UHGV virus genome: UHGV-1578124
DNA from: a virus
Reading direction: 5' to 3' (one strand)
DNA: 16,995 bases
How positions within the stretch are numbered: the stretch's first letter is position 1; each line of letters begins with the position of its first letter. The position numbers and the translations under genes were made by a program. Positions 4,681-16,995 of the stretch are shown in pieces. The notes beneath the pieces were generated by a model. That model saw only the letters and a list, made by a program, of their open reading frames with translations. It was not told where the DNA came from and did no database searches.

Positions 4681-5274
4681 TCAAGCATATCTTTTAGGCA
4701 GTAGTGTACTTTTTCTGCTTCGAACATCTTCAAGGATAGATATAAAGTCATCAGAAGCACCCTTCCAAGGGCTGAAGTTTGGGATGTGTTGACGAATAGC
4801 TTCAATAATCGTCTTCATACCTGTGTTCTTCATCCACCAATCTGAACTTGAGGCAGTCATAACAAAGAACTGCTCATCATCTGTTAAGATGACCTCTTTA
4901 GTGAATGGAGAAGTGTACGTAGTGATAATAGAACCACCATTCATATAATATGTACGCTTGTGAACTTTATCAAGCATATCATGCAGGTCACCAAACAGTT
5001 TCACAACCTCTTGGTGGTTAATGTCTTTCTCAAGGTCTAAACGGTACTTCAGAAGTGCTTCATCAACTTCTTTAGATGAGAACTTAAAGTACTGCACATC
5101 TTCAATGATACATGCAGAGATGTTGTTCACATCCATAGTCAATTTGGCAATTTTTGCTGGTGAGTTAATGTTTGGCTGGAACGCAGCAAGCACACCCTGA
5201 ACATTGCCGTAGTGTTGAACTAATGCAACTTGTGGAGAGTCAACTCCACCATTTTCTTTAATGTTTACACTCAT
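4681..5274 (-). CDS. hypothetical protein (197 aa)
   Basis: ATG with GAGGAA 8 nt upstream. Confidence 0.65.
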   Translation of the reverse strand: MSVNIKENGGVDSPQVALVQHYGNVQGVLAAFQPNINSPAKIAKLTMDVNNISACIIEDVQYFKFSSKEVDEALLKYRLDLEKDINHQEVVKLFGDLHDMLDKVHKRTYYMNGGSIITTYTSPFTKEVILTDDEQFFVMTASSSDWWMKNTGMKTIIEAIRQHIPNFSPWKGASDDFISILEDVRSRKSTLLPKRYA

Positions 5275-6696: not shown

Positions 6697-6720
6697 ATAA
6701 AAAAGGCTCCCGAAGGAGCC
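6697..6720 (-). terminator. intrinsic terminator (minus strand)
   Basis: Hairpin GGCTCC-CGAA-GGAGCC; on the minus strand it is followed by a U-run (plus A-run 6697-6704), downstream of the lysozyme gene. Confidence 0.65.
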
Positions 6721-6730
6721 TATGAATATA

Positions 6731-9653: not shown

Positions 9654-9702
9654 ATCTCTTATCTTAAAAGCCTTTTAAGAAGTCTTCATAGTAGGAGGTT
9701 GA

Positions 9703-10152: not shown

Positions 10153-11568
10153 ATGAGCGAATTATTTAACCACGCAAAATTACATGCTGGTTTGACTGAA
10201 AATGGTGCTGTTAACCATCTGACCTCAATGTCTGCCTTGGTAGACTTTTATAAGGCTGCTGGTTCAAGCCGTAACTACCCAGAGACTCTACCAAATCTGT
10301 TTTACAAAGCTCTGCGAGAAGATATCGATGTAGCGGTTCGAATCTTACTTCATATGCGAGATGCACGAGAAGGTATGGGAGAACGTAAAGCATTCAGAAC
10401 TGTCCTCTCAGAATCTATCAGAACCAACATACTTGATGAGTTCCAAGTTCTGCGTATCATGGCTAAGATTTCTGAACTAGGTCGTTATGATGACTTCAAA
10501 ATCTTCGTAGGTACTCGTTACGAGACTGATGCTTTCAAGCACATTGAGCAAGGATTGTTAGACCCAAATACTTCAGCGTTAGCTGCTAAGTGGTTGCCAA
10601 GGGTTAAGAAGCGTCACATGAATTTTGTAAAGCGTTTCTGCAAGTTTGCAAATCTAAGCCAGAAAGAGTATCGTCTGATGTTATCAGCACTGTCAGATAC
10701 CGTAGAGCAAAAGATTTCTGCAAATGAGTTTGGTGAGATTGATTACAGCAAGCTTCCTTCACTGGCTGCTGCACGTTATCAGAAATTGTTCACACGAAAA
10801 GGTGGAGAACGTTATGCAGAGTATGTAAAAGCTCTGACAGAGGGTACTACCAAGATTAACGCTGGTGCTGTTTACCCATATGATATCACCAAAGCTGTGA
10901 AGTACGGTCGTAGTGAAGTGGCTAATGAGCAATGGAAAGCACTGCCAAACTGGATGAAGGATGGTGAAAACATTCTTTGCATGACTGACGTATCAGGCTC
11001 TATGACGTGTGAACGTCACGGTTCTGTAGACGCTCTTGATATTGGTGTATCTTTGGCGTTATACGTCGCAGAACGCAATACAGGGTGTTTTAAAGATGAG
11101 TTAATGGTTTACTCCACAAATCCATTCTTTATCACTCTAAGTGGCTCTCTGAAGAATCGTATGGCTCAGGTCATGTCACATGTAGAGTATGGTTCAACAA
11201 ACCTTCAAGCTGCTTTTGACAGGATTCTTGAAATTGGTAAAAGAAATAACTTGACTCAAGATGCAATGCCACGTAAGCTTATCATCTTCTCTGACATGCA
11301 GTTTAACTCTGTTGATGGTCAGCGTGGTAATACTAACTTCGAAGCAATTCGTCGTAAGTATGAAGAATCAGGTTATGAAATGCCTCAGTTGGTATTCTGG
11401 TATCTGGCAAATCGTGGTGGTAACTGCGAAGTGTCTATTAAGGATAACGGAGTAGCAATGGTTTCAGGGTTCTCTCCAGCTACATTAAAGGCTCTACTTG
11501 GTGGTGAGAAGTTTGACCCAATCAGCGTAATGCTAAAAGCAGTAATGTCTGAACGTTACGATTGGTAA
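10153..11568 (+). CDS. vWA-domain protein with ~270-aa N-terminal helical domain
   Basis: ATG (MSELFNH...) with GAGAGAG upstream; the track ORF starts earlier at 10084. MIDAS-like D-V-S-G-S-M near residue 280, then downstream T and D positions consistent with a vWA fold. Confidence 0.75.
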   Translation: MSELFNHAKLHAGLTENGAVNHLTSMSALVDFYKAAGSSRNYPETLPNLFYKALREDIDVAVRILLHMRDAREGMGERKAFRTVLSESIRTNILDEFQVLRIMAKISELGRYDDFKIFVGTRYETDAFKHIEQGLLDPNTSALAAKWLPRVKKRHMNFVKRFCKFANLSQKEYRLMLSALSDTVEQKISANEFGEIDYSKLPSLAAARYQKLFTRKGGERYAEYVKALTEGTTKINAGAVYPYDITKAVKYGRSEVANEQWKALPNWMKDGENILCMTDVSGSMTCERHGSVDALDIGVSLALYVAERNTGCFKDELMVYSTNPFFITLSGSLKNRMAQVMSHVEYGSTNLQAAFDRILEIGKRNNLTQDAMPRKLIIFSDMQFNSVDGQRGNTNFEAIRRKYEESGYEMPQLVFWYLANRGGNCEVSIKDNGVAMVSGFSPATLKALLGGEKFDPISVMLKAVMSERYDW

Positions 11569-11586
11569 AAAGTTTTAAAAAGGGTA

Positions 11587-11615
11587 TTGACAATGTTGTT
11601 GATACCCTGTAAGAT
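11587..11615 (+). promoter_or_regulatory. sigma70-like promoter TTGACA-17-TAAGAT
   Basis: Hexamers at 11587-11592 and 11610-11615; near-duplicate of the element at 13619. Confidence 0.5.
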
Positions 11616-11677
11616 GTTCTACATCGAAACGGAAAAGAGTTTTTCTAAAAGATTTTCAAAATGTTTTAAAAAACCTC

Positions 11678-11707
11678 TTGACAAACACTAAAAAATAATG
11701 TTATAGT
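11678..11707 (+). promoter_or_regulatory. sigma70-like promoter TTGACA-18-TATAGT, ~27 nt before the first tRNA
   Basis: Hexamers at 11678-11683 and 11702-11707. Confidence 0.55.
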
Positions 11708-11733
11708 GGTTTCATAGAGTTTAAAAAGATTAT

Positions 11734-11813
11734 CTCCGTTTAGCTCAGTTTGGTTTAGCAGCACTTGCTTTGGGAGCAAGGGGTCGAGGGTTCAAATCCT
11801 TCAACGGAGACCA
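11734..11813 (+). tRNA. tRNA-Pro (anticodon TGG)
   Basis: Acceptor CTCCGTT/AACGGAG; anticodon stem CTTGC/GCAAG, loop TTTGGGA; T-arm GAGGG-TTCAAAT-CCTTC; discriminator A; CCA encoded. Confidence 0.85.
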
Positions 11814-11819
11814 AATTAT

Positions 11820-11897
11820 GTTCCAGTAGACAAATTGGTAAAGTCACCACACTTTCAATGTGGAGTTTTGAGGGTTCAAGTCCCTTCTGGAACGCCA
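11820..11897 (+). tRNA. tRNA-Glu (anticodon TTC)
   Basis: Acceptor GTTCCAG/CTGGAAC; anticodon stem CCACA/TGTGG, loop CTTTCAA; T-loop TTCAAGT; discriminator G; CCA encoded. Confidence 0.8.
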
Positions 11898-11901
11898 AAT
11901 T

Positions 11902-11974
11902 TGACAGAAGACCAAATACAGCAAACAACTTTTACTTTTCGCGCATAGAAAACATAAAAAGCTTGGTCTGGTCA
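11902..11974 (+). ncRNA. structured spacer element E1 (bulged two-helix family)
   Basis: Outer helix TGAC (11902-05) / GTCA (11971-74); inner helix AGACCAA (11909-15) / TTGGTCT (11963-69); unpaired AGA opposite G. Confidence 0.55.
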
Positions 11975-11982
11975 TTAAGAAT

Positions 11983-12059
11983 CGCGGGTATAGAGAAAGG
12001 GCGTCTCACATGTCTCATTAGCATGGCAACGGTTGGTTCGACTCCAACACCCGCCTCCA
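11983..12059 (+). tRNA. tRNA with CAT anticodon (Met, Ile2 or initiator)
   Basis: Acceptor CGCGGGT/ACCCGCC with C1-C72 mismatch; D-stem GAGA/TCTC; anticodon stem CATGT/GCATG, loop CTCATTA; T-arm GTTGG-TTCGACT-CCAAC; discriminator U; CCA encoded. Confidence 0.65.
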
Positions 12060-12062
12060 AAT

Positions 12063-12130
12063 TTACAGAAGGCCGTTTACAGCAATTCAAACAATTTTAT
12101 CGGAAAATTAAAATGAATACGGTCTGGTAA
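12063..12130 (+). ncRNA. structured spacer element E2
   Basis: Outer TTAC (12063-66) / GTAA (12127-30); inner AGGCCGT (12070-76) / ACGGTCT (12119-25) with one G-U pair; AGA opposite G. Confidence 0.55.
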
Positions 12131-12140
12131 TGTTAAACAT

Positions 12141-12217
12141 GGTTAGGAAGCACATAAGGCATGTGCGGTCGGCTGTTAACCGAATGGCACAGGGTTCGAA
12201 TCCCTGACTAACCGCCA
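12141..12217 (+). tRNA. tRNA-Asn (anticodon GTT)
   Basis: Acceptor GGTTAGG/ACTAACC; D-stem GCAC/GTGC; anticodon loop CTGTTAA; T-arm CAGGG-TTCGAAT-CCCTG; discriminator G; CCA. Confidence 0.8.
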
Positions 12218-12284
12218 AATTTGGGAGAGAAGCGATTGCTCACCGATTTGTAAGGTGCAAGTCCTTAGCCTGAATAGAATAAAA

Positions 12285-12373
12285 TGCGTCGTTATCCCGT
12301 AGATGGAAGCGGTGGTGACTGTAAATCACTTGTCATTACGACTCGGTAGGTTCGACTCCTTCACGGCGCACCA
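12285..12373 (+). tRNA. tRNA-Tyr (anticodon GTA), type II
   Basis: Acceptor GCGTCGT/ACGGCGC; anticodon stem GGTGA/TCACT, loop CTGTAAA; long variable arm with GTC/GAC stem; T-loop TTCGACT; discriminator A; CCA. Confidence 0.8.
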
Positions 12374-12379
12374 AATAAA

Positions 12380-12456
12380 GGTTATGTAGTTTAACTGGTC
12401 AAAATACTCCCCTGTCACGGGAGATGATGAGGGTTCGAATCCCTTCGTAACCGCCA
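12380..12456 (+). tRNA. tRNA-Asp (anticodon GTC)
   Basis: Acceptor GGTTATG/CGTAACC; anticodon stem CTCCC/GGGAG, loop CTGTCAC; T-arm GAGGG-TTCGAAT-CCCTT; discriminator G; CCA. Confidence 0.85.
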
Positions 12457-12514
12457 AATTTGAGAGGGCTTTTTAGCCCCTCCCTTAAAGAGTTCTTTCG
12501 AGTATTCTTTAAAG

Positions 12515-12594
12515 GAGCAGAAGACCAAATTCAGCAAGCAACAAAAATATTTCAAGCCAATTTAATTTGAAAAATTTAAAACTTGGTCTGGTTC
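12515..12594 (+). ncRNA. structured spacer element E3
   Basis: Outer GAGC (12515-18) / GTTC (12591-94) with one G-U; inner AGACCAA (12522-28) / TTGGTCT (12583-89); AGA opposite G. Confidence 0.5.
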
Positions 12595-12602
12595 CAACAA
12601 TT

Positions 12603-12734
12603 TTACAGAAGACCGTTTACAGCAAACAATAAACAATCTATTTCTCTTATAAAGAAAAGGCGAAGGTTCGAATCCTTCACACGTTACGGCGTGTTGGTGT
12701 AATGGAAGCACTTAAGATAAATACGGTCTGGTAA
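12603..12734 (+). ncRNA. structured spacer element E4 with internal tRNA-like module
   Basis: Outer TTAC (12603-06) / GTAA (12731-34); inner AGACCGT (12610-16) / ACGGTCT (12723-29). Apical region 12662-12711 holds a canonical T-arm, an ACACG/CGTGT hairpin and a D-arm-like GTG-TAATGGAAG-CAC. Confidence 0.55.
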
Positions 12735-12738
12735 TCCT

Positions 12739-12871
12739 CTTTGCAGTGACTTATGGAGCTAATATGTCGTCCCATGAGTGCCGATGAGTTTCTTGAGCAT
12801 GATTCTAGATTAGCTTACTAAGAGACAACTCTACAAACCCTTTAGCAAGGTTTGCGTAGGTTACTGCAAAG
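12739..12871 (+). ncRNA. candidate structured RNA closed by a long-range helix
   Basis: CTTTGCAGTGAC (12739-50) pairs with GTTACTGCAAAG (12860-71). Interior holds two overlapping mini-ORFs (12764-12787 MSSHECR, 12784-12813 MSFLSMILD), the first with GGAG 6 nt upstream. Confidence 0.35.
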
Positions 12872-12881
12872 ATGATTTAAT

Positions 12882-12957
12882 GGAAGTGTAGCAGAATGGT
12901 GATGCGGCAGACTTTTAATCTGACAGGCGACGGGTTCGAATCCCTCCACTTCTACCA
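12882..12957 (+). tRNA. tRNA-Lys (anticodon TTT)
   Basis: Acceptor GGAAGTG/CACTTCT; anticodon stem CAGA/TCTG, loop CTTTTAA; weak T-arm (GACGG...CCCTC); discriminator A; CCA. Confidence 0.7.
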
Positions 12958-12962
12958 AATTC

Positions 12963-13029
12963 GCCCTTAACTGAAGAACACATGCGCGGCTGGAGACACC
13001 CACTCAATCAGTTCTTCTACAAAGGGCAA
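12963..13029 (+). ncRNA. large imperfect hairpin
   Basis: GCCCTT + GAAGAAC (12963-79) pair with GTTCTTC + AAGGGC (13011-29) around a 4x4 internal loop; ~31-nt apical loop; no U-tract follows. Confidence 0.4.
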
Positions 13030-13037
13030 CTTATTAC

Positions 13038-13114
13038 GGTTCAGTCGCAGATAAGGTAATGCAAGGGTTTCATAAGCCCTATGAATGTGGGTTCGATTCC
13101 CACTTGAACCTCCA
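13038..13114 (+). tRNA. tRNA-Met (anticodon CAT; could be Ile2 or initiator)
   Basis: Acceptor GGTTCAG/TTGAACC; anticodon stem AGGGT/GCCCT, loop TTCATAA; T-arm GTGGG-TTCGATT-CCCAC; discriminator U; CCA. Confidence 0.75.
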
Positions 13115-13116
13115 AT

Positions 13117-13191
13117 TGTGGGTTAGCATAAATGGTAATGCAAACGGCTGATAACCGTTAGAAGAGGGTTCGATACCCTCACCTACAACCA
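13117..13191 (+). tRNA. tRNA-Ile (anticodon GAT)
   Basis: Acceptor TGTGGGT/ACCTACA; D-stem GCAT/ATGC; anticodon stem AACGG/CCGTT, loop CTGATAA; T-arm GAGGG-TTCGATA-CCCTC; discriminator A; CCA. Confidence 0.8.
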
Positions 13192-13206
13192 AATTCAATA
13201 AAGTTG

Positions 13207-13235
13207 TTGATATTGAGATGTGACTACTTTATAGT
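13207..13235 (+). promoter_or_regulatory. sigma70-like promoter TTGATA-17-TATAGT
   Basis: Hexamers at 13207-13212 and 13230-13235; would drive the ~200-nt non-tRNA segment before tRNA-Arg(TCT). Confidence 0.5.
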
Positions 13236-13241
13236 AACCTT

Positions 13242-13403
13242 AGTTTTCGTTAGCGTAGCGTCTATTTTGCAAACTTAAAAATAAATGCAAACGATAATGT
13301 TTTTCTGGCAGTAGCTTAATAGGCTAAACACCAGTGAGGTCTTCCAACCCCTCATCAAAGAATTTGGCGTACTAGCCCACGGTATGATTAATAAGGTGGG
13401 CAT
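13242..13403 (+). ncRNA. candidate small RNA / transcribed spacer
   Basis: Lies downstream of the 13207 promoter; hairpins TAGC/GCTA (13312-26), TGAGG/CCTCA (13334-53), GCCCAC/GTGGGC (13375-13401); no tRNA fold and no ORF. Confidence 0.3.
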
Positions 13404-13440
13404 CTTTAAGGGCTTTCTAAGAGAGTCTTTAAAGATTAAT

Positions 13441-13517
13441 GCACCCTTAGTTCAATTGGATAGAGCAACGGTCTTCTAAATCGTTAGTTACAGGTTCGAA
13501 TCCTGTAGGGTGTGCCA
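13441..13517 (+). tRNA. tRNA-Arg (anticodon TCT)
   Basis: Acceptor GCACCCT/AGGGTGT; D-stem GTTC/GAGC; anticodon stem ACGGT/ATCGT, loop CTTCTAA; T-arm ACAGG-TTCGAAT-CCTGT; discriminator G; CCA. Confidence 0.85.
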
Positions 13518-13618
13518 ATTAGTTAGCAGATTACTTAGACGACCTTAGCGGGTCTTCCTGTAGGGAGGTGGTCTGTATCTCATGTTTTCCAGAACATGTA
13601 AATAATCTGAGAAGGGGC

Positions 13619-13647
13619 TTGACAGTGTTGTGATAATACGGTAAGCT
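13619..13647 (+). promoter_or_regulatory. sigma70-like promoter TTGACA-17-TAAGCT
   Basis: Hexamers at 13619-13624 and 13642-13647; the block TTGACAgTGTTGTGATA...TAAG matches the 11587 element. Confidence 0.45.
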
Positions 13648-13659
13648 TCGAATTATAGT

Positions 13660-13742
13660 ATGGGACGATGTTAAGACACTAAGGCATGTGCGTAAGCCTC
13701 CAAAACTTACTCAAAGGGGTTCGATTCCTCCGTCCCATGCCA
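13660..13742 (+). tRNA. tRNA-Trp (anticodon CCA), atypical 80 nt
   Basis: Acceptor ATGGGAC/GTCCCAT (perfect); anticodon loop CTCCAAA; T-loop TTCGATT; discriminator G; CCA. There are about 7 extra nt between the acceptor stem and the D-arm. Confidence 0.6.
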
Positions 13743-13755
13743 AAGTCTCATTAGG

Positions 13756-13843
13756 GGTAGGTAGCGGCTAATGGTAGCCAAACTGTCTTGAAAACAGTTG
13801 CCACTGTAGAGATACGGTGAGGGTTCGACTCCTTTACTTACCG
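13756..13843 (+). tRNA. tRNA-Ser (anticodon TGA), type II
   Basis: Acceptor GGTAGGT/ACTTACC; anticodon stem ACTGT/ACAGT, loop CTTGAAA; variable-arm hairpin CTGTA-GAGA-TACGG; T-loop TTCGACT; discriminator G; 3' tail reads CCT, not CCA. Confidence 0.75.
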
Positions 13844-13923
13844 CCTAATAAGATTTAATTCCCGCGCTCGTCGAACAAGCTCGGTTTTTACTCGTGTATT
13901 GGCGTACACGGCACGACTATAAA

Positions 13924-13938
13924 ACACCTAGTAGGTGT
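13924..13938. promoter_or_regulatory. 15-bp palindrome ACACCTA-g-TAGGTGT (candidate protein-binding site)
   Basis: Perfect 7-bp inverted arms around a central G, in the 250-nt tRNA-free spacer 13847-14093. Confidence 0.4.
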
Positions 13939-14093
13939 CACGGAGAAGAGATAGTATCAAGCTCTCCAAAGGTTCTAGTCACCGGATTGAATAAGACTAT
14001 ATAAAGACTGTTTAGGTCTTTTTAGAGAATTGCTGAGGCATTTGATACCATTGTTGCTTTGGCGTCTTAGCAGTTCTCTACAAAGATTTAATG

Positions 14094-14171
14094 GGAGATT
14101 GACGGTAATTGGTAAACCTACCATCCTTAGAAGTTGGTGTTTGAGGGTTCGAATCCCTTGTCTCCTACCAA
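14094..14171 (+). tRNA. tRNA with anticodon TAG (Leu codon CUA), type I
   Basis: Acceptor GGGAGAT/GTCTCCT (G-U pairs at both ends); anticodon stem CCATC/GTTGG, loop CTTAGAA; T-arm GAGGG-TTCGAAT-CCCTT; discriminator A; CCA; no long variable arm. Confidence 0.6.
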
Positions 14172-14178
14172 ATTAATG

Positions 14179-14254
14179 CAGGTGTAGCAAAATGGTTATG
14201 CGGCTGACTCTTAATCAGTAAGACGATGGGTTCAATTCCCTCCACCTGTACCAA
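14179..14254 (+). tRNA. tRNA-Lys (anticodon CTT)
   Basis: Acceptor GCAGGTG/CACCTGT; anticodon stem GCTGA/TCAGT, loop CTCTTAA; same weak T-arm as Lys(TTT); discriminator A; CCA. Confidence 0.7.
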
Positions 14255-14260
14255 ATATCG

Positions 14261-14336
14261 GGGATGTAGTTTACATGGTTAAAACATAAGTTTTGCAAAC
14301 TTAAGTACAGGGTTCAATTCCCTGCTTCTCCACCAA
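14261..14336 (+). tRNA. tRNA-Ala (anticodon TGC)
   Basis: Acceptor GGGGATG/CTTCTCC with a G3-U70 wobble (the known Ala identity pair); D-stem GTTT/AAAC; anticodon stem TAAGT/ACTTA, loop TTTGCAA; T-arm CAGGG-TTCAATT-CCCTG; discriminator A; CCA. Confidence 0.85.
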
Positions 14337-14342
14337 TTAGTG

Positions 14343-14417
14343 CATCCATAGTTTAAACGGGAAAATTACAGTCTTCCAAACTGAGGTTGAGGGTTCGATT
14401 CCCTCTGGATGCTCCAA
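14343..14417 (+). tRNA. tRNA-Gly (anticodon TCC)
   Basis: Acceptor GCATCCA/TGGATGC (perfect); anticodon loop CTTCCAA; T-arm GAGGG-TTCGATT-CCCTC; discriminator U (as in Gly tRNAs); CCA. Confidence 0.85.
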
Positions 14418-14423
14418 ATAATG

Positions 14424-14500
14424 CTGCTTTCGTATAATTGGCTATTACACATCCCTTGTAAGGATGGAGATGCGGGTTCAAGTCCTGTGAGCAGCACCAA
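14424..14500 (+). tRNA. tRNA-Thr (anticodon TGT)
   Basis: Acceptor GCTGCTT/GAGCAGC; anticodon stem CATCC/GGATG, loop CTTGTAA; T-loop TTCAAGT; discriminator A; CCA. Confidence 0.8.
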
Positions 14501-14504
14501 TTTG

Positions 14505-14588
14505 AGGTCAAGTGAAAGGCCGCTTGAGTCAACTGAGACCGTAGCAAATTCCACGGAGTTGAGTTAGCGGCACAACTTCAGACCTCTT
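14505..14588 (+). ncRNA. nested-helix structured element between tRNA-Thr and tRNA-Val
   Basis: Closing helix GAGGTC (14505-10) / GACCTC (14583-88), second helix GCCGC/GCGGC, internal direct repeat TTGAGT x2; followed by a CTTTTAAAG motif. Confidence 0.4.
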
Positions 14589-14594
14589 TTAAAG

Positions 14595-14669
14595 CTCGCT
14601 TAGTTTATACGGTAAAGCCCCATCCTTACAAGTTGGTGAAGAAGGTTCAAGTCCTTCAGCGAGTACCAA
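14595..14669 (+). tRNA. tRNA-Val (anticodon TAC)
   Basis: Acceptor GCTCGCT/AGCGAGT; D-stem GTTT/AAGC; anticodon stem CCATC/GTTGG, loop CTTACAA; T-arm GAAGG-TTCAAGT-CCTTC; discriminator A; CCA. Confidence 0.8.
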
Positions 14670-14670
14670 G

Positions 14671-14748
14671 TTCCAGTATCCCAATTGGCAGAGGATGCAA
14701 GCTCAAACCTTGTATTAGTGACGGTTCGAATCCGTCTTGGAACACCAA
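14671..14748 (+). tRNA. tRNA with anticodon CAA (Leu codon UUG), type I
   Basis: Acceptor GTTCCAG/TTGGAAC; anticodon stem GCAAG/CTTGT, loop CTCAAAC; T-arm GACGG-TTCGAAT-CCGTC; discriminator A; CCA; 75 nt. Confidence 0.6.
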
Positions 14749-14762
14749 ATTAGGAGATTCCT

Positions 14763-14975
14763 ATGAAGCCTTATGGTAGACATGGTAAAGTTGAAATTGC
14801 AAGTTGTGGTTGCTGTGCTTCTCACGATGGTGAAGAAGATTACTACAAGTGGCGTACAGACCATCGTAGACGCTTTCTCAGAAGAGATAAGAAGAAAGCT
14901 AGACAGGAATCTCAAAAGAATATTGCAGAATTAGTTCAAACGGATAGAGCAGCAGCCTACGAAGTTGTTTGTTAG
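14763..14975 (+). CDS. small basic cysteine-containing protein (70 aa)
   Basis: AGGAG 5 nt upstream of ATG; contains C-G-C-C; its last ~17 codons run through the 5' two-thirds of tRNA-Arg(ACG), so the true 3' end is uncertain. Confidence 0.45.
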   Translation: MKPYGRHGKVEIASCGCCASHDGEEDYYKWRTDHRRRFLRRDKKKARQESQKNIAELVQTDRAAAYEVVC

Positions 14976-15001
14976 GGGTTCGAATCCCTTATTCTGCACC
15001 A
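14925..15001 (+). tRNA. tRNA-Arg (anticodon ACG)
   Basis: Acceptor GCAGAAT/ATTCTGC (perfect); D-stem GTTC/GAGC; anticodon stem GCAGC/GTTGT, loop CTACGAA; T-arm AGGGG-TTCGAAT-CCCTT; discriminator A; CCA. Confidence 0.85.
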
Positions 15002-15019
15002 ATTTTAGAAGGTAATTAT

Positions 15020-15247
15020 ATGCGTAAACTCATTATTGAAAGGCATAAAGATGCTGACAAGATTGCAACAACACAAGTTGGGGACACTGACTTCATTCTT
15101 GTAGGTTGGAAATGTGACCCAATAGCAGTTATGAAGGTTGTTCATGGTTTTGCAGGAATTGAATTTAATCAAATCATATTTGAAACGCTATTACCAGAAA
15201 ATCAGGATACGTGTAATAACGCATATGTCCTGACAAGAGTTCGTTAG
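15020..15247 (+). CDS. small protein (75 aa), paralog of 15292-15519
   Basis: AGAAGG ~7 nt upstream of ATG (MRKLIIERH...); the track ORF starts earlier inside the tRNA. Shares blocks with the next gene (GDT-FI-VGWK-DP, FAG-E, QVIFET-LPEN-DTCNNAY-LTRV). Confidence 0.65.
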   Translation: MRKLIIERHKDADKIATTQVGDTDFILVGWKCDPIAVMKVVHGFAGIEFNQIIFETLLPENQDTCNNAYVLTRVR

Positions 15248-15273
15248 GGGTTCGAATCCCTTATTCTGCACCA
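15244..15273 (+). pseudogene. tRNA 3' fragment (T-arm + acceptor 3' strand + CCA)
   Basis: A 31-nt stretch (GTTAGGGGTTCGAATCCCTTATTCTGCACCA, from 15243) is identical to the 3' end of tRNA-Arg(ACG) at 14971-15001; no matching 5' acceptor strand, D-arm or anticodon arm upstream. Confidence 0.65.
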
Positions 15274-15291
15274 AATTTAAAAGGGTAACTT

Positions 15292-15519
15292 ATGTTTAAA
15301 CTCATAGTTGAAAAACACCCAGAAGATGACAAGCTTGAAACAGGGAGATTTGGAGATACTTTCTTTATCAGAGTTGGCTGGAAAGCTGACCCATTAGAAG
15401 TTAGAAAGATTGTCTACAACTTTGCTGGTTTGGAATTAAAGCAAGTCATCTTTGAAACAATGTTGCCAGAAAATAAAGATACATGCAATAACGCATATAT
15501 TCTTACAAGAGTTAGTTAG
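15292..15519 (+). CDS. small protein (75 aa), paralog of 15020-15247
   Basis: AAAGGG upstream of ATG; stop codon TAG (15517-19) overlaps the first nucleotides of tRNA-Gln(TTG). Confidence 0.65.
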   Translation: MFKLIVEKHPEDDKLETGRFGDTFFIRVGWKADPLEVRKIVYNFAGLELKQVIFETMLPENKDTCNNAYILTRVS

Positions 15520-15593
15520 GGGATTAGTTTACAAGGTTAAAACCTCGGTCTTTGAAATCGAAGAAGTTGGTTCAATTCCAACATCCCCCGCCA
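15518..15593 (+). tRNA. tRNA-Gln (anticodon TTG)
   Basis: Acceptor AGGGGAT/ATCCCCC with unpaired 1-72; D-stem GTTT/AAAC; anticodon stem TCGGT/ATCGA, loop CTTTGAA; T-arm GTTGG-TTCAATT-CCAAC; discriminator G; CCA. Confidence 0.75.
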
Positions 15594-15595
15594 AT

Positions 15596-15674
15596 GCTCC
15601 ATTACTCCAATTGGCAGAGAGGCCAGACTTAAAATCTGTGTTATGTATCGGTTCGAATCCGATATGGAGTACCA
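15596..15674 (+). tRNA. tRNA with anticodon TAA (Leu codon UUA), type I
   Basis: Acceptor GCTCCAT/ATGGAGT; anticodon stem CAGA/TCTG, loop CTTAAAA; T-arm ATCGG-TTCGAAT-CCGAT; discriminator A; CCA; 76 nt with a 7-nt variable region. Confidence 0.6.
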
Positions 15675-15680
15675 AATATT

Positions 15681-15756
15681 AGCAGTGTAGCATAACTGGC
15701 AATGCTCCAGCCTCTGAAGCTGAAAGATTAAGGTTCAAATCCTTACGCTGCTGCCA
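15681..15756 (+). tRNA. tRNA-Gln (anticodon CTG)
   Basis: Acceptor AGCAGTG/CGCTGCT; D-stem GCAT/ATGC; anticodon loop CTCTGAA; T-arm TAAGG-TTCAAAT-CCTTA; discriminator G; CCA. Confidence 0.75.
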
Positions 15757-15787
15757 CTTCTAAGGGTTCTTACGAGAGTCCTTAAAT

Positions 15788-15864
15788 GTGGCCTTATCAT
15801 AAACGGATAATGACCCATGCTGTGAACATGGTCTATACGGGTTCGATTCCCGTAGGTCACCCCA
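15788..15864 (+). tRNA. tRNA-His (anticodon GTG)
   Basis: Acceptor GTGGCCT/AGGTCAC; D-stem TCAT/ATGA; anticodon stem CCATG/CATGG, loop CTGTGAA; T-arm ACGGG-TTCGATT-CCCGT; discriminator C; CCA. Position -1 is T, not the usual encoded G. Confidence 0.8.
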
Positions 15865-15871
15865 ATTCAAT

Positions 15872-15947
15872 AGCTCAATTAGCTTATATGGTTAAAGCGC
15901 GTGTCTGAAAAACATGAGAACAGGGTTCAAATCCCGATGGGCTACCA
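15872..15947 (+). tRNA. tRNA-Phe (anticodon GAA)
   Basis: Acceptor AGCTCAA/ATGGGCT; anticodon stem CGTGT/ACATG, loop CTGAAAA; T-loop TTCAAAT with a weak 3-4 bp T-stem; discriminator A; CCA. Confidence 0.65.
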
Positions 15948-15963
15948 ATTTTATAGGTGCATA

Positions 15964-16698
15964 ATGAAAGAGATGACAGGACAAGGTAAAGAGATTTTCA
16001 GTCTCCTTAAATCCGGTAACGGGTTCTCTAACCCTCTTATTACTGGTGCAGCAGTTCTTGGTGGTACAGTTGCCGCTTCTCAGTCATTAGTAACTTCTAT
16101 TGGTTCTGTATCAGACCCAGCTACCCAGCAAATTCTTATTGCTGCTGGCTTGACAACTGCCTTACTAAGCAGCTTTACAACAAGCCTTGGTAGCACCACT
16201 TCAACGACAACCACTTTAACTGACTATGGACAGAAGTCTGTAGATGAGTTTTCACAACGTATGCAAGTAGCTAAAGGTTACTCTAACGTTATGGGAGCAG
16301 CAGGTGAACAAGTCGGTTGTACACCGTTTAGTGGAATCATGGGAGTTGCTACAGAGTACGGTAACAAAGCTATGGATTTGATTAATACATCCATAGACGC
16401 TGTAAATGGCGTTCTAAGCGATTTACAAGATGCGATTGATAAAGGACTAGACACCATCTCTGAACTCGCTACACAGGCTGTTACAGTGATTAATGAGGGT
16501 ATGGCAAAGATTACCGCCTACGCTAATGAAGTGGCTCAGATGATTGCAGATGAAGCAGCCCTGATTGCTGACTACCTTAAAACGAATATTAATGGTTTTC
16601 TTGCTAATGTCTTACCAGATTGGTTTGATGATGCTTGTAAAACTGGTGTGATTGATACAATCGCAACTCCAGAGATGAAAGATGCTCTAAACAAATAA
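15964..16698 (+). CDS. hypothetical Ser/Thr/Ala/Gly-rich protein (244 aa)
   Basis: The track ORF starts at 15901 inside tRNA-Phe. First ATG after the tRNA (MKEMTGQ...) has AGGTG 4 nt upstream. Confidence 0.6.
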   Translation: MKEMTGQGKEIFSLLKSGNGFSNPLITGAAVLGGTVAASQSLVTSIGSVSDPATQQILIAAGLTTALLSSFTTSLGSTTSTTTTLTDYGQKSVDEFSQRMQVAKGYSNVMGAAGEQVGCTPFSGIMGVATEYGNKAMDLINTSIDAVNGVLSDLQDAIDKGLDTISELATQAVTVINEGMAKITAYANEVAQMIADEAALIADYLKTNINGFLANVLPDWFDDACKTGVIDTIATPEMKDALNK

Positions 16699-16701
16699 TT
16701 T

Positions 16702-16794
16702 GGAAGATTAACCCTAAAAGGTAAGGGAGTAGTTTGCTAAACTGCCAGTAACCGAGAAATCGGCGTACCAGTTCAAGTCTGGTATCTTCCTCCA
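16702..16794 (+). tRNA. tRNA-Ser (anticodon GCT), type II
   Basis: Acceptor GGAAGAT/ATCTTCC (perfect); D-stem CCC/GGG; anticodon stem GTAGT/ACTGC, loop TTGCTAA; variable-arm hairpin CCGA-GAAA-TCGG; T-arm ACCAG-TTCAAGT-CTGGT; discriminator U; CCA. Confidence 0.8.
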
Positions 16795-16801
16795 AATTAA
16801 T

Positions 16802-16878
16802 GTGTCGGTGGCAGAAATGGATTATGCGCCTGTCTGCAAAACAGGTATATAAGGGTTCAAGTCCCTTCCGATACTCCA
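16802..16878 (+). tRNA. tRNA-Cys (anticodon GCA)
   Basis: Acceptor GTGTCGG/CCGATAC; anticodon stem CCTGT/ACAGG, loop CTGCAAA; T-arm AAGGG-TTCAAGT-CCCTT; discriminator U (as in Cys tRNAs); CCA. Confidence 0.8.
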
Positions 16879-16911
16879 ATTTAAATAATATCTCTCTCAA
16901 AGTTATTATAT

Positions 16912-16970
16912 GCCCTGCTATGAGTATTCTCCCTTTCGCTACCGGAGAGTATTTTTAGACAGGGCTTTTT
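16912..16970 (+). terminator. candidate intrinsic terminator closing the tRNA array
   Basis: Outer stem GCCCTG (16912-17) / CAGGGC (16959-64), inner stem TCTCC/GGAGA, followed by TTTTTT (16965-70). Confidence 0.5.
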
Positions 16971-16995
16971 TGTAGAGTTATACTTTATGGGAAGA

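Follow-up and report, generated by a model that had tools for sequence, protein, structure and literature searches.

The closest described counterparts of the elements reported here are the C(UUCG)G stabiliser hairpins that Tuerk et al. reportedly described in 1988 in intercistronic regions of phage T4, where UNCG hairpins stabilise the RNA and are thought to act as exonuclease barriers. Dunn and Studier are said to have described RNase III processing sites in the early and late transcripts of phage T7, where the upstream RNA keeps a protective 3' hairpin after cleavage. Spacers of bacterial tRNA operons can also yield functional RNAs, reportedly including the 3'ETS-leuZ and the metZ-metW internal spacer studied by Lalaouna et al. 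in 2015, and REP/BIME and MITE-like palindromes are short, imperfect, repeated intergenic elements that are transcribed and can stabilise upstream mRNA.

Here we describe exactly three paralogous stem-loops, H1, H2 and H3, on the + strand of the tRNA array of a Felix O1-like (Ounavirinae) phage, within a window of 16,995 nucleotides, the whole stretch of DNA analysed (Table 1). Like the T4 hairpins, they are short, UUCG- or UACG-capped stem-loops in transcribed non-coding spacers of a virulent coliphage, in sense orientation and without a U-tract; unlike them, they are AU-rich with several G·U pairs, close the tetraloop with U-A rather than C-G, include a UAA triloop in H2, share sequence beyond the loop, and occur three times within a tRNA array. 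With the T7 sites they have in common that similar hairpins recur at the junctions of a polycistronic phage transcript, but the T7 sites are longer, with about two helical turns and an internal loop, and are not UNCG-capped, whereas the core of H3 measures 10 bp. The bacterial spacer RNAs are likewise structured pieces, which RNase P or RNase E cuts out of tRNA precursors, but they act by base-pairing with sRNAs, and the phage hairpins occur also away from tRNAs. In contrast to REP/BIME and MITE-like palindromes, there are only three copies here (eight in a related genome), all in sense orientation, and neither insertion polymorphism nor duplicated target sites were seen.

Table 1 Features in and around the three stem-loops (positions in the window)
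Feature	Position	Strand	Description	Evidence or remark
GC hairpin	12466..12479	+	GGGCU-UUUU-AGCCC, between tRNA-Asp and H1	fold; conserved in relatives
H1	12480..12517	+	stem-loop of ~15 bp, UUCG cap	fold; model R1
L-R unit	12518..12596	+		repeat family D10, fold, motif counts
Promoter, sigma-70-type	13207..13235	+	TTGATA-17-TATAGT	10/12 matches; most likely drives tmRNA-like RNA
tmRNA-like RNA core	13243..13401	+	mRNA-like domain only	three conserved hairpins
H2	13402..13436	+	16-bp stem, UAA loop	fold; R1 49.0 bits; R2 26.1 bits
tRNA-Arg(UCU)	13441..13517	+	directly 3' of H2	
tRNA-Gln(CUG)	15681..15756	+	encoded CCA end abuts H3	
H3	15755..15791	+	10-bp core stem 15761-15784, UACG cap	fold; R1 45.8 bits
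tRNA-His(GUG)	15788..15864	+	begins 3 nt past H3 stem	

Three related stem-loops at module junctions

A preliminary description of this DNA had listed three related copies of a hairpin motif, and their relatedness is borne out by covariance modelling, local alignment and conserved positions. When a covariance model (R2) is built from H3 orthologs and one Erwinia-phage copy alone, its two highest-scoring non-self matches on the + strand of the whole 17-kb window are H2 (26.1 bits, E=1.5e-5) and H1 (14.3 bits, E=0.054). By sequence alone, the local matches to H3 in the window exceed shuffled controls clearly for H2, whose score of 29 lies above all 100 shuffles, and marginally for H1, the second-best match (score 25, z about 2.3). 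All three fold below dinucleotide shuffles (z = -2.4, -4.0 and -2.3 for H1, H2 and H3), with + strand energies of -21.7 (H1, with the neighbouring GC hairpin), -17.4 (H2) and -10.0 kcal/mol (H3). H2 folds to -5.7 kcal/mol on the - strand; thermodynamics alone gives no + preference for H1 or H3, and model R1 scores H1 at 47.3 bits on the + and 26.8 bits on the - strand. A supposed partial fourth copy at 14586-14596 does not hold up, its fold energy being 0 and the model not matching it, and a filters-off model scan found no further copies in the window. Nor is GAGAG/CGAG the core of the inverted repeats: their centre is the tetraloop or triloop (UUCG, UAA, UACG), and GAGAG forms the upper stem's 3' strand.

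The inner part of H1 (ccttaaagag...ctttaaagg) occupies 12483-12515, 2 nt later than the start of 12481 previously given for this otherwise real copy, and the outer CUCC/GGAG pairs extend it to its full length; inwards from these follow a 1x1 loop, a 9-bp stem, a U·U mismatch and 2 bp. The inner part of H2 is 13404-13434. That of H3 (15757-15787) takes up the whole 31-nt Gln-His spacer, and its possible outer CAC/GUG pairs overlap both neighbouring tRNAs. A position directly next to a tRNA end, claimed for every copy, applies to H2 (4-6 nt to tRNA-Arg) and H3 (3 nt to tRNA-His) but not to H1, which starts 23 nt past tRNA-Asp behind another hairpin, with the next tRNA 365 nt downstream. H1 instead lies 1 nt from the L-R unit, CAGAAGACCAA ... 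UUGGUCUGGU, a stem around an AU-rich insert. A GC-rich hairpin precedes not only H1 but also H2 and the Erwinia copy. The hairpins are placed at junctions between modules.

The window has strong sigma-70-like promoters at 11587, 11678 and 13207, and no terminator was found between them and the hairpins. H1-H3, which belong to a small family of RNA stem-loops that are AU-rich and mostly capped by UNCG, are most likely transcribed within a long untranslated tRNA/ncRNA precursor.

Conservation and selection for pairing

In Felixounavirus and Mooglevirus the positions of H1-H3 are kept wherever the fetched sequence covers them, and the sequences are nearly invariant across covering loci. H3 is present in 32 of 37 loci, with an identical sequence in 26 and single- or double-base variants in 4. 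A diverged copy is found in Erwinia Kolesnikviruses, from whose loci H1 and H3 are absent; tRNA-Leu follows 7 nt after the core stem of this copy, or 1-2 nt after its outer pairs. The whole genome of the related phage Sf17 holds five additional copies, in sense orientation and in non-coding gaps of an early operon; since these lie away from any tRNA, the motif is not tRNA-specific.

Pairing holds in 94.5% of cells across orthologs and paralogs (22 distinct sequences), compared with 39-65% when the partners are slid, and 7 of the 14 pairs have changed on both sides; one H1 pair appears among orthologs as A-U, G·U, A·C and G-C. In six representatives, 16 G·U stand against 2 A·C on the sense strand (binomial p = 0.0013). 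That pairs are kept and wobbles are in excess on the sense strand indicates selection on a single-stranded sense-strand element, most simply RNA. Single-stranded DNA hairpins that tolerate G·T would yield an equal strand asymmetry. The loops of H1 orthologs (UACG, UUCG, UGCG, UGUG) vary mostly within the UNCG class, which suggests that a stable cap has been selected and not any particular loop sequence.

H2 as the 3' end of a tmRNA-like RNA

H2 is the 3'-terminal hairpin of a tmRNA-like RNA, its stem ending 4 nt upstream of tRNA-Arg(UCU), a tRNA gene that is interrupted or replaced in relatives with HNH endonuclease genes. This RNA is most likely promoter-driven and about 195 nt long including the H2 cap. 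It shares with tmRNA (ssrA) an A-rich resume context, a GCA resume codon, a tag frame (GCA..GCU UAA UAG, 13287-13322) reading ANDNVFLAVA before two stop codons that lie inside a helix, and hairpins downstream; its core has a fold z of -3.55 and compensatory pairs in a six-lineage alignment. In contrast to tmRNA, we found no tRNA-like domain, with no acceptor stem, T-arm or CCA of its own; the transcript is predicted to start at GUUUUCG, 7 nt past its own -10 box; matches to Rfam (RF04321, 33.8 bits; RF00023, 12.6-16.3 bits) are below gathering thresholds; and ARAGORN makes no call at its default settings. The promoter keeps an equal distance from GTTTTCG in the Erwinia phage and in lineage L050, and P45 of FelixO1, TTGACA(17)TATAGT, is listed in PMC3185647. 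Since H2 belongs to this ncRNA rather than to the adjoining tRNA, describing the hairpins as flanking tRNAs is too narrow, although all three do lie in the tRNA array; the tRNA-distant Sf17 copies lead to the same view.

The slot after the tmRNA-like core is filled differently elsewhere: in FelixO1 by an unrelated 61-nt hairpin (-22 kcal/mol) with flanks exactly equal to those of H2, in lineage L145 by a long hairpin (-35 kcal/mol) and in L050 by GGUGGC-UACG-GCCACC, while one lineage, L083, has no hairpin there.

Possible roles of the hairpins

Of the roles proposed previously, an RNA processing signal comes closest, in that an RNA-level function best fits the tRNA strand, the kept pairing and the mostly UNCG-type loops of H1, while cleavage itself is putative. 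Our preferred reading, to which we tentatively assign a probability of roughly 40%, is that H1-H3 are punctuation hairpins that block exonucleases and insulate folding at module junctions. Processing would cut the 5' end of the downstream module, with RNase P acting where a tRNA follows (H2 and H3), and the upstream piece would then carry the hairpin 3-7 nt short of its newly made 3' end. A hairpin so placed would block 3'-to-5' exonucleases, of which RNase II and PNPase stop at stable stem-loops and require ~6-10 nt of unpaired RNA as a 3' toehold; the hairpin would also keep adjacent modules from mispairing. The hairpins would then decide where the precursor is cut and which pieces survive, the clearest case being H2, which would cap the tmRNA-like RNA and let transcription continue into tRNA-Arg. 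Here we infer where the RNA ends lie, which nucleases act and any stabilisation; the literature searched yielded no RNA-end or half-life data for this phage group. The hairpin slot kept despite differing sequences speaks in favour of such a role, as do the sense-strand selection for pairing, the loop pattern of H1, the short distances from the stems to the next module and the upstream promoters with no terminator in between.

One could instead suppose, by analogy with the T7 early region, that the hairpins are RNase III-type sites, the double-stranded stem being cut, the modules separated and the short trailers trimmed by exonucleases. Like the T7 sites, these sequence-related hairpins lie in sense orientation at intergenic junctions of polycistronic transcripts, five Sf17 copies occupy non-coding gaps of the early operon, and the stems are AU-rich and, in H2 and H1, 16 and ~15 bp long. 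This reading would also solve a problem posed by H3: a protective hairpin there would stay attached to tRNA-Gln(CUG) as a 3' trailer and, short of removal by an endonuclease, should impede maturation of this tRNA, so that a cleavage site fits better; excision would release tRNA-Gln at its CCA end and tRNA-His at its 5' end. We nevertheless consider it unlikely, given the 10-bp core of H3 (13 bp if one counts the outer pairs, which compete with the tRNA acceptor stems), UNCG caps that are typical of stabiliser hairpins and not of T7 RNase III sites, and slot hairpins that differ greatly in length and composition between lineages. A recognition tag by which a phage or host RNA-binding protein marks phage ncRNAs seems to us decidedly unlikely. 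The apical 16 nt, GGUUCUUACGAGAGUC, are identical (16/16) in H3 and the Erwinia copy while the lower stems differ with compensatory changes, and copies accompany ncRNA-like modules (the tmRNA-like RNA, L-R units, NNGGT pentamer arrays of Sf17); yet the loop bases of H1 orthologs vary freely within UNCG, the apical part of H2 differs (CUUUCUAAGAGAG), and unrelated hairpins substitute in FelixO1 and other lineages. One candidate protein, encoded directly upstream of the tRNA array (10153-11568), carries Pfam DUF2828 and DUF7788 and matches PHROG 850, "RNA-binding protein", a label that is annotation only; no sequence similarity to Ro60 or other solved RNA-binding proteins was found, and Erwinia loci keep one hairpin without a DUF2828 gene at the corresponding place upstream of the array.

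It is improbable that the copies merely stem from the spread, neutral or selfish, of a self-complementary, AU-rich palindromic mini-element through non-coding DNA and lack any function of their own, although every hairpin also reads as a self-complementary unit repeated directly two or three times in tandem (UCUUUAAAAGGG in Sf17 early copy B; TRF period 11-12), the absence of H1 and H3 from Kolesnikvirus loci indicates that copy number grew in one lineage, and H1 was lost in PMBT20 and ESCO49 without obvious harm. Fixed positions, nearly invariant sequences, substitutions biased towards keeping pairs and towards the sense strand, and a uniform sense orientation speak against it; the mobile mini-element suggested earlier is not supported, as relatives show neither target-site duplications nor insertion polymorphism at the boundaries, and losses occur only via larger deletions or whole-hairpin replacement. 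We find very improbable a DNA-level element, be it a single-stranded hairpin or cruciform or paired CTTTAAAG protein sites, with a part in replication, priming or recombination or the function of an operator. As DNA, CTTTAAAG is perfectly palindromic and the two arms are spaced 22-24 bp apart, single-stranded DNA hairpins tolerate G·T pairs too, and homology breakpoints coincide with the edges of H2 in relatives carrying HNH endonuclease genes; Sf17 copies adjoin promoters and NNGGT arrays containing (G/T)GGTC, pentamers that resemble T7-type primase sites, and FelixO1 encodes a T7 gp4-like primase/helicase. However, the arms covary with each other without keeping the palindrome consensus (UAAGG/CCUUA in H3), UNCG-type loop stability is RNA-specific, all copies follow transcription, a tRNA array is an unlikely place for an operator or origin, and no binding protein is known. 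Least probable is a co-transcriptional pause or antitermination signal that lets RNA polymerase cross ~5 kb of untranslated RNA without Rho-dependent termination, Rho targets including long untranslated operons. Weak relatives of the motif do occur just downstream of strong promoters (9659-9682 and 11640-11675 in the window; 28629-28592, about 25 nt past a promoter, in Sf17, locus L151), but those in the window score only 11-13 bits, H1 and H3 are far from any promoter, the hairpin is unlike boxB, nut or put, no boxA was found, and no N- or Q-like gene is associated.

Punctuation hairpins, the reading we prefer, face difficulties of their own: the tetraloop is closed by a U-A pair and not by the extra-stable C-G, the loop of H2 is a UAA triloop, and the apical identity of H3 and the Erwinia copy suggests that recognition may be sequence-specific beyond structure. 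The hairpins are real, but of a familiar kind if this reading holds. We further note that position -1 of tRNA-His(GUG), just downstream of H3, is U, and G-1 is therefore not encoded.

Three related hairpins in the tRNA array

Bases 11700-16995 of the window match 299 phage records, Felix O1 among them, with Shigella phage ESh21 as the best match (95% identity); judged by these sequence matches, the phage belongs to the Ounavirinae (Mooglevirus/Felixounavirus). ARAGORN places 25 tRNAs on the plus strand in an array spanning 11734-16878, and predicted strong sigma-70-like promoters at 11587 and 11678 would drive it, a further one lying inside it at 13207. The preliminary description had pointed to three related hairpin copies in this array, and all three (H1, H2 and H3, see table) are found where they were reported, folded, recovered by model and conserved in position. 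A partial fourth copy, suggested at 14586-14596, has to be dropped, as it folds with 0 kcal/mol and is matched by no model. Evaluated as plus-strand RNA, H1-H3 beat dinucleotide-shuffled controls in fold energy by 2.3-4.0 standard deviations. The stem of H1 includes two mismatches, and that of H3 reaches 13 bp only with pairs invading the flanking tRNAs. H1 lies after tRNA-Asp and a GC hairpin and ends 1 nt before an L-R unit (a repeated stem module), H3 occupies the whole Gln(CUG)-His spacer, and at three of four lineage-positions the stem ends 3-7 nt ahead of the next tRNA.

Coordinates of the hairpins and associated features in the window
Feature	Position	Strand	Description
H1	12483-12515, full stem 12480-12517	+	~15-bp stem, UUCG cap
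H2	13404-13434, full stem 13402-13436	+	16-bp stem, UAA cap
H3	15757-15787, core stem 15761-15784	+	10-bp stem, UACG cap
tmRNA-like RNA	promoter 13207-13235, RNA ~13243-13440, tag frame 13287-13322	+	predicted
L-R units	11898-11975, 12059-12133, 12511-12596, 12599-12737		AAUUU(U)ACAGAAGRCCNN ... NNGGUCUGGU
471-aa protein gene	10153-11568	+	Pfam DUF2828 + DUF7788, PHROG 850 ("RNA-binding protein" by annotation)

Even with filters off, a covariance model of the hairpin family (R1) detects these three copies in the window and no others (46-49 bits on the plus strand, 17-27 bits on the minus strand), although these scores are circular, the model having been trained on the same copies. We therefore built a leave-out model (R2) from only the H3 orthologs and a diverged copy in Erwinia Kolesnikviruses (the Erwinia copy), and its top non-self matches on the plus strand are H2 (26.1 bits, E=1.5e-5) and H1 (14.3 bits, E=0.054). 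Direct alignment within the window bears out the relatedness as well: among the local matches to H3, H2 ranks first with a score of 29 and H1 second with 25, compared with a best local score of 20.3 ± 2.0 on average, and 27 at most, in 100 shuffled windows. The kinship of H2 and H3 is thus solid, while the membership of H1 is marginal by sequence alone and draws support from register, structure and context. A search of the window against Rfam at gathering thresholds returned tRNAs only, and the hairpins are covered by no known family.

Conservation and selection for pairing

Orthologs were extracted from relative loci by BLAST, and in all fetched Felixounavirus and Mooglevirus loci covering them the three hairpins sit at the same positions (H3 in 32 loci, H1 in 24, H2 at full length in 13, with four further loci in which homology stops at the 3' edge of H2). 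H3 is identical in 26 of its 32 loci. Among H1 orthologs the loop is mostly UACG, otherwise UUCG, UGCG or UGUG; a single pair of the stem varies between A-U, G·U, A·C and G-C, and a C·A mismatch has become C-G in two loci. This constancy of position speaks against the proposal of a mobile mini-element (MITE/REP-like), as do the losses, which occur only via larger deletions or cassette replacement; all copies of the motif, moreover, are in sense orientation, and neither the insertion polymorphism nor the target-site duplications expected of such an element, along with copies in both orientations, are seen.

To measure selection on pairing, orthologs were aligned with the Erwinia copy and with three copies found elsewhere in a related genome, 22 distinct sequences in all. 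Of the cells in this alignment 94.5% pair, whereas the figure drops to 39-65% when partners are slid and to 82% when they are shuffled, and 7 of the 14 pairs have changed on both sides. There are 47 wobble pairs against 5 A·C mismatches overall, or 16 against 2 when only six representatives are counted (p = 0.0013), an excess which indicates that the selected pairing is that of the strand transcribed with the tRNAs. Since fold energy is decisive for H2 only, H1 and H3 being near-equal on both strands, our strand call rests on these counts together with loop type and direction of transcription. The sense-strand bias also means that the main constraint cannot come from independent protein sites in double-stranded form. 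Pairing and wobble data fit an RNA hairpin and a same-strand ssDNA hairpin alike, and it is the UNCG loops and the transcription-wise orientation that favour RNA. At the level of comparative sequence, the spacers of Felix O1-like tRNA arrays show conservation and selection for RNA structure.

A tmRNA-like RNA ending in H2

Of the three copies H2 tells us most. The context of the hairpins is more surprising than the hairpins themselves, above all the predicted RNA of which H2 forms the 3'-terminal hairpin and which resembles a tmRNA without a tRNA-like domain. The ~190 nt upstream of H2, behind their own promoter, are conserved as far as the Erwinia Kolesnikviruses and carry compensatory changes (GUGAGG/CCCUCA vs GUAGGG/CCCUA; GCCCAC/GUGGGC vs UCCCGU/ACGGGG). 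The RNA matches RF04321 with 33.8 bits in a permissive Rfam search and RF00023 with 12.6-16.3 bits over model positions 56-294 of 374, both below the gathering score of 47. Its tag region, AAAAAUAAAU GCA AAC GAU AAU GUU UUU CUG GCA GUA GCU UAA UAG, reads ANDNVFLAVA followed by two stops, closely resembling that of E. coli ssrA; the tag frame has its GCA resume codon, the sequence ahead of it is rich in A, and a stop codon falls within a helix. The tags of five other lineages are ANDAQFLAVA, ANDTQYLAVA, ANDDQFLAVA and ANDDTILMVA, the last three from further IMG/VR phage lineages carrying the same RNA, of which there are at least three (L050/L087/L147, L145 and L083). Aligned across six lineages, the helices are conserved with compensatory pairs, and in three lineages a transcript start, GUUUUCG, is predicted 7-8 nt past the -10 box.

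Default ARAGORN finds no tRNA-like domain in this RNA, for which an acceptor stem with G3·U70, a T-arm and a CCA end would be expected; relaxed ARAGORN and RF04321 each give an alignment, but the T-arm in it is that of the neighbouring tRNA-Ile, and a BLAST search with E. coli ssrA hits tRNA T-arms only. In the literature searched, ARAGORN "ssrA" calls for Felix O1 and Moogle appear only as remarks in genome announcements, a tmRNA census lists neither phage, and none of the papers describes a tmRNA-like phage RNA lacking the tRNA-like domain.

The position after the tmRNA-like core is filled differently from lineage to lineage: by the motif hairpin in Felixounavirus, Mooglevirus and Kolesnikvirus, by an unrelated 61-nt hairpin with exactly the same flanks in Felix O1 itself, by a GC-rich UACG hairpin in L050, by a long hairpin in L145, and by no hairpin in L083. 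The motif thus behaves as a replaceable 3' terminal add-on that stands outside the RNA core.

Two further RNAs with tmRNA features occur in other phage sequences. Erwinia phage Hena2 has at positions 4861-5027, directly upstream of its tmRNA-like RNA, a 167-nt tRNA-like RNA with a tmRNA-like 5' end (GGGUGAUUCUG...) and a T-arm and acceptor at the 3' end (...GGUUCGAAUCCUUAAUCACUCGCCA), a homolog of which is absent from the window. In a large phage contig from IMG/VR (140 kb), a permuted tmRNA in two pieces, which looks genuine, is encoded at ~11300-11600, its acceptor piece (...GGACGCGGGTTCGACTCCCGCCAGCTCCACCA) upstream of the coding piece (GGGGCTGTATTGGAATTCGAC...), with the tag ANDNVYMVRAAA.

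Hairpins and repeated modules beyond the tRNAs

The motif had been described as flanking tRNAs, which holds for the three copies in the array and fails for five more in Shigella phage Sf17, whose whole 90-kb genome we scanned. These five, scoring 16-30 bits, lie outside the array. They occupy two non-coding gaps close to the DNA ligase gene, within an early operon read from the minus strand, and all have the sense orientation of that operon; 10-14 NNGGT pentamers follow each of them. On the minus strand at 26884-27240 and 28272-28851 there are four modules, in each of which a hairpin of the motif family and its 10-14 NNGGT pentamers are accompanied by a small GGUAGU..GCUAC hairpin; one further motif hairpin is located just upstream of gp66. 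The modules could be protein-sponge RNAs, or they could be priming or origin elements at the DNA level, an idea that derives from (G/T)GGTC being a T7-type primase site.

The spacers near H1 are filled by four L-R units (CAGAAGACCNN...NNGGUCUGGU), which are found in Felixounavirus and Mooglevirus and are absent from the Kolesnikvirus loci. Their 7-bp stem occurs in matched variants (AGACCAA/UUGGUCU vs AGACCGU/ACGGUCU) and is accompanied by an outer stem and an AGA bulge, enclosing inserts of 50-120 nt, the fourth of which holds a weak tRNA-like match (12612-12686). Directly upstream of the array lies the gene for the 471-aa protein, whose product has a DVSGSM MIDAS-like motif. Compared with PDB sequences, this protein, conceivably of the Ro60/TROVE type, matches neither Ro60 nor any other solved structure, and Pfam gives only its two DUF assignments.

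Function of the hairpins

The closest known elements are the intercistronic UNCG hairpins of T4 and the RNase III site family of T7, with which the motif shares its logic. T4-type stabilisers, whose presumed role is to shield upstream RNA from 3' exonucleases, have a UNCG tetraloop closed by a C-G pair, C(UNCG)G. The UUCG of H1 and the UACG of H3 and the Erwinia copy resemble these, but their loops are closed by U-A, and H2 has a UAA triloop. Several other identities were discarded. An intrinsic terminator does not fit, the stems being AU-rich with no T-run after them; the sole terminator-scan call nearby, 12458-12503, is an artefact merging two hairpins, and a true terminator in the window looks like AGGCUCC-UUCG-GGAGCCU followed by a U-run (6700-6722, minus strand). 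Lambda boxB/nut antitermination hairpins have a 5-bp stem and a GNRA-like pentaloop and stand beside boxA downstream of a promoter, unlike the 10-16 bp stems and UNCG/UAA loops found here, with H1 and H3 far from promoters. Nor is H3 a degenerate tRNA anticodon arm, since its register gives a 4-nt loop in place of the 7-nt anticodon loop and ARAGORN calls no tRNA there; the record of phage CL1 annotates a "tRNA-Val(tac)" across it.

Tentatively, with a probability of about 0.4, we read the motif hairpins as structural punctuation of polycistronic RNA. The 5' end of the downstream module would be made first, leaving the hairpin close to the newly created 3' end, at a distance of a few nucleotides, where it could block the presumed nucleases, RNase II and PNPase, with a presumably stabilising effect; it may also insulate the folding of neighbouring modules. 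The positions of the hairpins, the mostly UNCG loop pattern and the H2 slot, at which any hairpin seems to do, argue for punctuation. Its main weakness is H3, where a barrier 3' of tRNA-Gln should impede maturation of this tRNA. Excision by an endonuclease such as RNase III would solve this problem, and for that reason we keep cleavage of the hairpins as the first rival. RNase III sites have at least ~20 bp of nearly uninterrupted dsRNA, in many cases including an internal loop; the motif stems (16 bp in H2, ~15 in H1, 10-13 in H3) stay under two helical turns. H3 and the Erwinia copy are identical over 16 nt at the apex, which suggests a tag for a protein. Less probable are a role at the level of DNA, an origin as neutral duplicates and a co-transcriptional signal. 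More speculatively still, and in our view improbably, the hairpin could be a common recognition tag in a phage-encoded ncRNA system comprising the tmRNA-like RNA, Y-RNA-like L-R modules by the DUF2828 gene and early-region GGU-pentamer-repeat RNAs, one phage or host factor processing or binding them all.

Neither the literature searched nor, within it, the Felix O1 genome paper describes these hairpins, and neither a Felixounavirus transcriptome nor data on transcript ends were found there. Structured punctuation in polycistronic phage transcripts is a well known class. Felix O1-like phages are used in Salmonella typing and biocontrol, and the annotation of phage tRNA arrays usually consists of bare tRNA lists. 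If the hairpins set RNA ends, the output of each phage tRNA and small RNA would be under their control, and they offer concrete targets for end mapping. They also led us to other ncRNA modules, namely the tmRNA-like RNA, the L-R stems beside a putative RNA-binding gene and the hairpin-pentamer arrays; should the shared-tag idea be true, these phages would possess a programme of small RNAs, so far unrecognised, that targets translation or the quality control of RNA.

Other features of the window

As an insertion/deletion mini-element, the long hairpin in the 80-nt spacer between tRNA-Lys and tRNA-Met (12958-13037; GCCCUU..GAAGAAC / GUUCUUC..AAGGGC, -23.2 kcal/mol, z = -3.6) makes a better candidate than the motif hairpins; it is missing in several relatives, TP1 and tootiki for example, where the spacer measures 4-5 nt. 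Two genes, at 12287-12375 and ~13660-13742, were missed by ARAGORN: a tRNA-Tyr(GUA) (22.8 bits with Rfam), annotated in relatives as Tyr or pseudo, and what may be a tRNA resembling Trp(CCA), preceded near 13620-13659 by a promoter-like site. Bacterial tRNA-His usually carries G-1; in tRNA-His(GUG), 15787-15864, position -1 is U, with C73, so that G-1 is not genome-encoded, and the Felix O1 copy bears a pseudo-tRNA annotation.

A Cys-rich, basic 70-aa ORF (14763-14975, PHROG 10765), kept and annotated in relatives, extends into the gene for tRNA-Arg(ACG) (14925-15001), overlapping its 5' half. A 272-nt tandem duplication covers 14967-15510, its copies sharing 74-75% identity; each begins with a tRNA 3' half (GGGGTTCGAATCCCTTATTCTGCACCAA), that of the first being part of tRNA-Arg(ACG), and continues with a small ORF (PHROG 14202, unknown function). 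Finally, the non-coding region 1-1440 is dense in short repeats (CTATAACGCT x3.8, TGTTAGAGACT-like x11.7, a 31-nt repeat x2 and CTATATAG-type units), with weak matches to the hairpin model at 135-180.
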